From positions 1,872 through 65,871 of the forward strand of contig CAYWRO010000011.1 of assembly GCA_964460345.1 (NCBI GenBank): a stretch of 64,000 bases of DNA, written 5' to 3'. The stretch comes from an uncultured Phycisphaeraceae bacterium. GTDB taxonomy: Bacteria > Planctomycetota > Phycisphaerae > Phycisphaerales > UBA1924. Positions 1,040 to 62,156 of this stretch are shown piece by piece (the first letter of the stretch is position 1; each line of letters opens with the position of its first letter). Position numbers and translations under genes: made by a program. The notes below the pieces were generated by a model. That model had not been told where the DNA came from. It searched no databases and was given only the letters and a program-made list of their open reading frames with translations.

Positions 1040-1153
1040 GGGGGATTGTTGGCGCGAGGCGGATTTGTGATCGGGCTCCGGGGTGCGAGGTGCGCGAGGG
1101 CCCCTTTCAGGGGAGCAGCTGGTACAACTTGCCCGCCAGACCCCCCTGTTGCG

Positions 1154-1405
1154 GGGCCAACTTGCGGTAAAAGCGGGCCGGAACACTTTATTTGTCCAGC
1201 CACACACTCTCTTTGTGGGCCCACGAAGAAACTTCTCGGGCCCGAGAAGAGACTTCTTTGGCCCATGAACGTCCTTCTCGGGCCCGCGAAGAGGCTTTTT
1301 GGGCCCGTCGACCTTCTTCTTGGGCCCATCAAGAGACTTTGCGGGCCCGGCAACGCTCTTCGTGGGCCCATCGACTCTCTTCTCGGGCCCGCGATGGACT
1401 GCCGT
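1154..1405. repeat. Tandem array A: about 12 units of 21 bp (9 well conserved) built around palindromic GGGCCC
   Basis: GGGCCC or a one-mismatch variant starts at 1154, 1175, 1217, 1238, 1259, 1280, 1301, 1322, 1343, 1364 and 1385. Every interval is 21 or 42 bp. Units read GGGCCC-nn-GAAGAnnCTTCTy. Confidence 0.9.
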
Positions 1406-1522
1406 GCCGCGGGGAGCTTCGCATCTGCCGCGTTGGCACCCGGCTGTCGCGCGGGTTGTCAGAGCGGCGCGCCGGGAAGGATCGGCTGCGGCCGCGGCGG
1501 CCGGGGGCCTTGATGCGGCGGC

Positions 1523-1539
1523 TTGGCACGCCGGTTGAT
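1523..1539 (+). promoter_or_regulatory. Candidate sigma54-type -24/-12 promoter upstream of the hsp20 cluster
   Basis: TTGGCACGccggTTGAt compared with consensus TGGCACG-N4-TTGCW; only the C of TTGC differs. It lies 68 nt upstream of the hsp20 ATG at 1607. Confidence 0.35.
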
Positions 1540-31710: not shown

Positions 31711-31780
31711 AATTTATCAGTTGCACGGAGCGTCGCGTGGGTCCGCGGTTTGTTCGGGTCGAAGGTCCGGATAACGCAGG

Positions 31781-32011
31781 CAAATGATCAAATGAGCGGC
31801 CCAAATGATCAAATGGACCGGGCAAATGATCAAATGGACGGAGCAAATGATCAAATGGACGGGCCAAATGATCGAATGAGCGGGCCAAATGATCAAATGG
31901 ATGGAGCAAATGATCAGATGGCCCGTTTCATTCGTTCAGATGGATGGTTCAATCGTTCAAATGAGCGGCCCATTCGTTCAAGTGGCTCGTCCATTCGTTC
32001 GAATGAAGCGT
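31781..32011. repeat. Tandem array B: 11 units of exactly 21 bp (7 x CAAATGATCAAATGnnnnGnn, then 4 x yCATTCGTTCAAATGnnnnGn)
   Basis: CAAATGATC starts at 31781, 31802, 31823, 31844, 31865, 31886 and 31907. The variant units start at 31928, 31949, 31970 and 31991. Confidence 0.9.
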
Positions 32012-61925: not shown

Positions 61926-62156
61926 CCTGAAATGATTTCTGACGCACCAGAATTGATTTCGGACGAGTCGGACACGAGTTTGCACGCGTCGGAAGTGGGT
62001 CCGCACGCGTCCGAAACGACATCCGATGCGTCCGACACGAAGTCGCACGCATGAGAACTCAAGTCGGACGCATCAAAAACGAGGTTGCACGCGTCTCAGA
62101 CGAACTCGCACGCGTCTGAGATGAAATCGCACGCTCCTGAAATGAAGTCGCACACA
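61926..62156. repeat. Tandem array C: 11 units of exactly 21 bp (consensus TCnGAnAcGAnnTcGCACGCG)
   Basis: Unit starts at 61926, 61947, 61968, 61989, 62010, 62031, 62052, 62073, 62094, 62115 and 62136. A degenerate extra unit lies at 61905. Confidence 0.9.

Follow-up and report, generated by a model that had tools for sequence, protein, structure and literature searches.

Iterons (R6K, RK2, P1 and pPS10) are repeats of 17-22 bp at a spacing of ~21-22 bp. They invite comparison with the element analyzed here, array A, which comprises 12 units of 21 bp at positions 1154-1405 of a 64,000-nucleotide stretch of DNA (the window), in the spacer between the divergent genes pfkA and hsp20. Array A resembles iterons in its head-to-tail arrangement, two-turn spacing, copy number (5-12 in iterons) and non-coding nature, and it may likewise carry an oligomerising protein on one face. 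In addition, TTATCCGGAC, a motif at the end of related arrays, loosely resembles the DnaA box. Unlike iterons, array A is not accompanied by a rep gene or an AT-rich unwinding region and does not lie in a plasmid context. The genes flanking array A encode PFK and HSP20, array and spacers are at least 62% GC, and array A is one of ~95 chromosomal arrays of differing units.

The type II/Ib centromeres bound by ParR (parC of R1 and pSK41) also consist of short tandem repeats that support a continuous nucleoprotein filament. In pSK41 parC, 8 repeats of 20 bp are present, and the array length of ~200 bp is comparable. However, no partition operon was found adjoining array A, neither parM/parR nor another cognate gene lies beside it, and the arrays are too many for segregation sites.

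REP/BIME elements of enterobacteria share with the present arrays a genome-wide, intergenic distribution, palindromic sequence and organization in arrays. They are bound by gyrase and IHF and are thought to manage supercoiling. REP sequences form one family of hundreds of copies in alternating orientation, mostly at 3' gene ends, whereas the units described here are private to each array, run head-to-tail in strict 21-bp phase and in many cases lie upstream of genes. The array A 18-mer, allowing up to 2 mismatches, occurred in array A only; a single genomic copy with 3 mismatches was present elsewhere (C61:8510). Minisatellites (VNTRs, e.g. mycobacterial MIRUs) are intergenic tandem repeats with a copy number that shifts between close relatives, as observed here for an array of another genus (g31). 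However, MIRUs, which form a single family, are 40-100 bp long and often show translational coupling. Minisatellites have nothing to match the dyad units with their strict 21-bp period, the conserved end motif or the association with a gene family.

The CTT..AAG-type arms beside a small heat-shock gene recall the HAIR operator of HspR (CTTGAGT-N7-ACTCAAG), and the location at enhancer distance from a sigma-54 promoter recalls a sigma-54 UAS. Arm sequence and spacing differ from HAIR (7-4-7 versus 7-7-7), and the UAS type actually used in this family is another palindrome. Single-copy array A sites were not found upstream of other genes in the genome, and on this ground a dispersed regulon or HspR-type operator set was rejected. 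By analogy, array A would be closest to iterons and type II centromeres in its working, to REP/BIME in its distribution and to minisatellites in its turnover. It does not carry the defining features of iterons, centromeres or REP/BIME, having no rep or par gene and not being a dispersed single family.

Anatomy of array A

A pattern search of the window located exact GGGCCC at 1217, 1238, 1280, 1301, 1322, 1343, 1364 and 1385, confirming all eight positions given in the initial annotation, together with its one-mismatch sites at 1154 (GGGCCA), 1175 (GGGCCG) and 1259 (TGGCCC). The slot at 1196 is degenerate (CCAGCC), and an extra GGGCCC at 1098 lies outside the 21-bp phase. Given the genomic frequency of GGGCCC (1,373 copies in 3.83 Mb, 0.36 per kb), phased recurrence at seven further fixed positions has a chance probability of ~1e-24. 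The window contains 25 copies compared to 44 ± 6 expected from shuffles, and because 8 of the 25 reside in array A, GGGCCC is depleted elsewhere in the window. Under-representation of this ApaI-type palindrome outside arrays may reflect restriction avoidance.

Tandem Repeats Finder returned a period of 21 bp with a super-period of 42 bp and 0% indels. Units two apart are 71% similar, compared to 61% for neighbors. Each unit consists of an 18-bp dyad, CTTCTC-GGGCCC-GAGAAG, followed by a free 3-bp spacer. The information content is 1.3-1.7 bits in GGGCCC, 1.1-1.3 bits in CTTC, intermediate in the mirrored GAAG and ~0 in the spacer (column heterogeneity within units, p = 0.012). The array is composed as follows:

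1154-1216, no strand assigned: three degenerate units (GGGCCA.., GGGCCG.., CCAGCC..) at the pfkA-proximal edge, in register with the core
1217-1405, no strand assigned: nine well-preserved units with the consensus GGGCCC-G-n-GAAG-nnn-CTTC-T-y, a 42-bp super-period and no indels
1232-1249, no strand assigned: CTTCTCGGGCCCGAGAAG, the sole perfect 18-bp palindrome in array A, unique in the genome

The degenerate units (1154-1216) retain a GGGCC head and a CTTT..TTTGT tail. Near-perfect dyads number 2-4 of 9, the remainder having 2-4 mismatches in their 9-bp arms. With z = 5.0, the dyad symmetry of array A ranks second among the 95 arrays. The dyad symmetry, two-turn phase and divergent-spacer location first described for the array are thus borne out, and the conserved arms with a free 3-bp spacer resemble tandem operators, in keeping with the dimeric-binder-like pattern that had been proposed. 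The second dyad reported alongside, GAAG-N3-CTTC, is present, exact in two units only (1225 and 1246) and with one mismatch at 1267 and 1288. It does not stand as independent evidence, because the periodicity forces a second dyad centre 10.5 bp from the first.

Promoters and genes around array A

Pfam searches identified PFK on one side of the array and two HSP20 genes followed by an HtrA-type protease on the other. The start codons (pfkA ATG 1039, hsp20 ATG 1607) are separated by 567 bp, of which array A occupies 252 bp (44%), not most of the spacer as initially described. The control elements around it are the following:

1045-1050, minus strand: AACAAT, -10 candidate of pfkA, 6 nt before the ATG at 1039 and outside array A
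1434-1449, plus strand: TGGCACCCGGCTGTCG, sigma-54-like box without the -12 GC
1457-1469, plus strand: TGTCAGAGCGGCG, UAS-like site similar to TG(C/T)CA-N3-TG(G/A)CA, starting 52 bp past array A
1524-1539, plus strand: TGGCACGCCGGTTGAT, putative sigma-54 promoter of hsp20-hsp20-htrA, 118 bp past the last unit and 67 nt before the hsp20 ATG

Upstream of hsp20, 18 of 24 loci from other genera of this family carry a sigma-54 -24/-12 element of the TGGCAC type. It lies 60-170 bp before the start codon, mostly as TGGCACG-N4-TTGC(A/C); four of the 18 elements have a -12 box of TTGAA or TTGAT, like the element in the window. Since a sigma-54 element is kept upstream of hsp20 in the relatives, TGGCACGCCGGTTGAT is assigned as the hsp20 sigma-54 promoter, based on conservation and consensus. 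Many relatives carry the UAS palindrome TG(C/T)CA-N3-TG(G/A)CA 60-100 bp upstream of this promoter, and TGTCAGAGCGGCG is close to TGTCAAAGCGGCG of one such locus (L144). Alternatively, the array-end motif GGGTTATCTGACG could have given rise to the site at 1457-1469 by decay. The box TGGCACCCGGCTGTCG is probably not a promoter and may belong to the enhancer region.

The pfkA genes of relatives have a -10-like TAsCAT 7-12 nt before the ATG, and by position and conservation AACAAT is the probable -10 of pfkA in the window. The short distance from -10 to ATG in the family (6-12 nt; window 1040-1050, L001-L020) suggests that the pfkA mRNA is leaderless or has a very short leader. Transcription is predicted to start near 1040-1045 on the minus strand for pfkA and at about 1550 on the plus strand for hsp20. 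A sigma-70 promoter scan of the pfkA/hsp20 spacer gave no match, and 'terminator' matches in the spacer were dismissed as merely the perfect dyad, detected on both strands.

Measured from the pfkA ATG, array A lies 114-366 bp upstream, and from the -24 box of the hsp20 sigma-54 promoter 118-370 bp upstream; it therefore overlaps neither core promoter. The initial annotation had placed it across both; however, the hsp20 promoter and UAS-like site lie beyond its end and the probable pfkA -10 abuts the ATG. None of the relatives' hsp20 loci with sigma-54 promoter or UAS carries a 21-bp array. Judging from the retention of promoter and UAS in array-less relatives, array A is not the ancestral hsp20 enhancer. 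For annotation, the gain is that array A is separated from the true hsp20 control elements, the sigma-54 promoter and the UAS.

Besides rpoN, the genome contains six full bEBP genes. Upstream of dnaK (C70:17647) there is likewise a sigma-54 box close to consensus, TGGCACACCCCTTGCA, at a distance of 49 bp, and sigma-54 promoter and UAS palindrome are conserved at the hsp20 loci of the family (L124-L147). These observations suggest a sigma-54-dependent heat-shock regulon in this Phycisphaerales family.

A genome-wide class of 21-bp arrays and its turnover

The assembly (3.83 Mb, 66.6% GC, 152 contigs) belongs to the Phycisphaerales according to the relatives of its PfkA. It contains 144 non-redundant tandem arrays of period 21, compared to 1-51 for any other period, and an additional 30 arrays of period 42 and 20 of period 63. 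After merging, 95 arrays of at least 84 bp were obtained, totalling 18.6 kb or 0.5% of the genome. The class was defined by head-to-tail units with a period of 21 bp (or 42/63), at least 4 units and essentially no indels. Array A belongs to it by its exact period, unit number and lack of indels, and is intergenic and non-coding.

The arrays lie in co-directional (40), divergent (17) and convergent (7) spacers, at contig ends (20) and in called genes (11), so that 84 of 95 are intergenic. Note that the spacer-type counts are approximate, as genes were called by a crude codon-usage caller, and that some of the 11 genic calls are probably miscalls. Two more 21-bp arrays in the window, array B (31779-31921) and array C (62087-62153), are both in convergent spacers, and therefore the class is not confined to promoter regions. 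The initial interpretation of array A as a dedicated pfkA/hsp20 control element does not hold, array A being one of ~95 arrays of the same period, some of them in convergent spacers. Array A is thus not a locus-specific operator but one of a class of phased intergenic arrays, and an orphan within it. The class is specific to this Phycisphaerales family, with array A as a minisatellite of that class. Full-text searches found no literature describing 21-bp arrays in Planctomycetota.

Units differ from one array to another. Recurring cores are GGAGCG/CGCTCC (15 arrays) and AAAT(C/G)ATTT-type sequences (~8 arrays). Significant dyad symmetry (z > 2) was detected in 45 of 95 arrays and in 37 of 74 some unit positions are conserved more than others (p < 0.05), while 44 of 73 diverged period-21 arrays have zero indels. 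GGGCCC punctuates four or five other arrays as well (C8, C9 and the C75/C113/C101 copies), and the nearest relative of the array A unit is the C75-type unit CTTTTGGGGCCCGTGAAA. An array-containing segment of ~560 bp is duplicated (C75:14980-15530 versus C113:2700-3230); a third copy (C101:10232-10520) has only the array and end module in common with these. Upstream lies a palindrome, GCGGTAC(T/C)CCGCG(C/T)GGGCATGC(CACCC), that recurs upstream of several other arrays.

A different kind of repeat brackets the PF05635 genes (23S-rRNA-IVS four-helix bundle; C23:3716-4212, C52:18179-18715, C106:692-1153), which are enclosed by inverted 7-8-bp arrays (AGAGACGA ... CTTCGTCT; TTGGGCT ... AGCCCAG). A link between the 21-bp arrays and these 23S-IVS-protein cassettes was rejected: the repeat class differs, and there was only one weak, sub-threshold match near a 21-bp array.

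About 40 arrays carry an end motif, at one end only and always directed outward. It takes the forms (G/C)TTAT(C/T)-n-GGAC, ACGTCCGCA-N4-GTTATC, GTTATCCGGAC(C/G) and GTTATCTGACGT. All 20 intergenic occurrences of TTATC(C/T)GGAC and GTTATCTGAC lie no more than 150 bp from an array. The motif often recurs in inverted orientation 50-80 bp further out, one end module of ~50 bp abuts arrays of unrelated units, and variants of the motif adjoin arrays in other genera too. The motif could be a protein site, a promoter element or a recombination site. Examples are:

window 31763-31774, minus strand: GTTATCCGGACC, left of array B
C75:15481, C57:7435 and C45:28503+: end motifs of arrays on other contigs

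No exact copy is present at array A, the nearest sequences being GGGTTGTCAGAGC (1454-1466) and CTTTATTTGTCC (1185-1196). About half of the array class also has no end motif.

A family of ~26 paralogous genes for proteins of ~220 residues (for example C7:18243-18923, C54:13501-14172 and C98:10773-11453) is associated with the arrays: 18 members have an array directly upstream. It is next to these genes that the array class is most clearly delimited. These private arrays are situated 100-400 bp upstream, and the conserved leader that follows the array contains an A-tract and GCT(C/T)AAG(C/T)C ~70-110 bp before the start codon. A Pfam search of the proteins gave no match. AlphaFold (pLDDT 90) predicted a long helical hairpin, a proline-rich linker and an FN3 domain, and the top Foldseek matches of the model were all FN3 domains. 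Multiple copies of the family are present in 19 genera of the order, and in other genera its members again have upstream 21-bp arrays, with different units. The FN3-family protein was considered as a binder of the arrays and set aside, as no DNA-binding fold was recognized in the model and the genes are monocistronic and have no conserved partner. Contig C11, on which array A resides, carries no FN3-family gene, the neighbors being PFK and HSP20. Array A is classed as an orphan because it has no FN3 gene alongside and no clear end motif.

Array A proved to be private to its locus. Among 185,579 species genomes the unit pattern gave only 10 single chance matches, and metagenome contigs contained no array related to it, only 18 unrelated arrays, mostly perfect, coding-looking repeats. 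The genomes compared included no congener of the source genome. Since pfkA and hsp20 are not neighbors in any of 80 relatives (0/80), array A marks a lineage-specific junction. The initial annotation had named absence of the array from otherwise syntenic relatives as a refutation; none of the 80 relatives is syntenic, and no array is present at their pfkA or hsp20 loci. Random 200-kb samples of four family genomes, too small to relate array density to the FN3 family, contained 3, 0, 0 and 0 arrays.

Across genera, conservation of unit sequence is at most marginally above the shuffled null. Within one genus (g31), an orthologous slot could be followed through four species:

G036:C1:415597-415803, with orthologous positions in G031, G046 and G033 (L149, L230-L232): 9.9 units in one species, 5.6 from the same unit family in another, 10.7 of an unrelated 21-bp unit in a third, no array in a fourth

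The sister species G036 and G046 carry unrelated units. Comparison of this slot shows that unit number, unit sequence and presence vary, and therefore that the arrays are labile. In at least the g31 case, the slot outlives the sequence.

A proposed docking platform and its alternatives

We propose, at a probability of roughly 0.4, that array A is a one-face docking platform for an oligomerising DNA-binding protein. According to this model, the array would have been acquired in this lineage at the junction of pfkA and hsp20-hsp20-htrA, upstream of both promoters. Successive 18-bp dyads would face one side of the helix, two turns per unit, and hold a DNA-binding or nucleoid-associated protein, either dimeric or oligomerising, which would build a nucleoprotein filament of ~250 bp. 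The filament might have an architectural effect on both promoters. It might, for instance, form a barrier of a topological or insulating kind, or modulate looping between the hsp20 enhancer and the sigma-54 promoter. We infer both protein binding and any regulatory effect.

The phase without indels, the conserved arms, the end motif and the cross-genus gene association point to constraint on geometry and positions, and since such constraints are typical of tandem docking sites, a nucleoprotein platform is favored. In array A, 12 units with only 61-71% similarity have accumulated 0 indels. In g31, the orthologous slot keeps its array across species with a changed copy number. On the other hand, unit diversity and unit replacement (G036 versus G046) are hard to reconcile with sequence-specific recognition. 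Arrays in convergent spacers, the lack of an end motif or FN3 gene at array A, the small number of near-perfect dyads (2-4 of 9) and the fact that the FN3 protein is not a recognizable DNA binder also argue against docking. These points keep two rival explanations alive.

The stronger of these, though somewhat less likely than docking, is a neutral or selfish, fast-evolving minisatellite that arose and is homogenized through slippage or unequal recombination and has no function at the junction; the process generating the FN3-cassette arrays may have seeded it. It would account for an array missing from every relative's pfkA or hsp20 locus, a unit confined to its own locus, and congeners whose arrays are present, shorter, unit-replaced or absent. 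Arrays in every spacer type (convergent included), the degenerate edges predicted by concerted evolution and the absence of arrays from the random samples of three family genomes are also consistent with it. However, phase is kept without indels at 30-40% unit divergence, as in the 44 of 73 diverged arrays with 0 indels. Moreover, constraint inside units is position-specific, a period of 21 is far more frequent than one of 20 or 22, and end motif and gene-family association are conserved across genera.

The second rival, a structure-forming element, is rather improbable. Here array A would extrude cruciforms under negative supercoiling, or form tandem hairpins if transcribed, with geometry and not sequence being what matters. 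The single-strand fold of -67 kcal/mol (z = -5.75 relative to shuffles) agrees with this, as does the recurrence of dyad symmetry while the unit sequence is free to vary. In the dyad arrays of the class, compensated double changes number 36, compared to 17 expected. Rfam at gathering score assigned no family to array A; its only sub-threshold chance matches were long hairpins (microRNA-precursor-like). Arguing against a structural role, near-perfect dyads are few in array A, where compensated and uncompensated double changes are nearly equal (5 versus 4). Across the class, 22% of mirrored cells carry single, unpaired changes (512 such changes), and about half of the arrays are not palindromic. 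In addition, the best-conserved stretch of the unit, GGGCCC, would be the loop of the GGGCCC-centred hairpin.

A broader version, in which the ~100 phased dyad arrays per genome, nucleated or anchored at a conserved TTATCCGGAC-type site, constitute a lineage-wide DNA-organizing system of the Phycisphaerales with one geometry-reading 'ruler' protein, is to our mind a long shot. Such a protein would coat the arrays and read two-turn spacing and dyad symmetry, not sequence. The arrays would set the expression of the hypervariable FN3 surface-protein family, and orphan arrays such as array A would insulate or tune housekeeping and stress promoters (pfkA and sigma-54 hsp20-htrA). The free unit sequence, and unit replacement as between G036 and G046, would then mean that a dedicated mechanism keeps rebuilding the arrays de novo.

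It is very unlikely that array A serves the sigma-54 hsp20 promoter as an upstream enhancer composed of bEBP sites. Its end is 118 bp upstream of the promoter, a typical enhancer distance, and the genome has rpoN and six bEBPs. However, the hsp20 promoter of relatives is accompanied by a different short UAS palindrome, TG(C/T)CA-N3-TG(G/A)CA, and no array, and a UAS-type copy lies between array A and the promoter. With one exception, other good sigma-54 promoters (dnaK etc.) have no array, and 95 arrays face only 6 bEBPs. A role of the arrays as generic bEBP enhancers was rejected on the same ground, other sigma-54 promoters being without arrays. The enhancer reading is thus largely excluded, and so is a coding one.

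A heptad-repeat peptide (GPxKxxx; 21 bp corresponds to 7 codons) or an N-terminal extension of PfkA is practically untenable: three frames are stop-free across the array, one of them in frame with pfkA (GPEKRVD/GPTKSVA...), but open frames are expected anyway at 62% GC with a self-complementary GGGCCC, each of the six frames scores below zero in codon log-odds (-0.22 to -0.59 per codon, the flanking genes reaching +0.44 and +0.48), GC3 of 0.53-0.64 contrasts with 0.79-0.90 in the flanking genes, and PfkA homologues align from residue 1-6 without an extension, the PFK domain beginning at residue 6. Array A is non-coding.

Returning to the docking platform, tandem sites two turns apart are a hallmark of cooperative nucleoprotein filaments like those of iterons and centromeres, which are known as single, gene-linked plasmid arrays. 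Here the same geometry occurs ~100 times in a 3.8-Mb chromosome, with free units and with an end motif and partner gene family conserved across genera. Array A probably serves in protein docking or DNA architecture, as an element of a type absent from the literature we found. The position of 20 of the 95 arrays at contig ends explains why Phycisphaerales assemblies break. Should the arrays be neutral, an unexplained mechanistic preference for 21-bp units remains. If they are bound, array A and its siblings would serve as a probe set for fishing out the protein, and the arrays would point to a new chromatin or regulatory layer in a poorly studied phylum.
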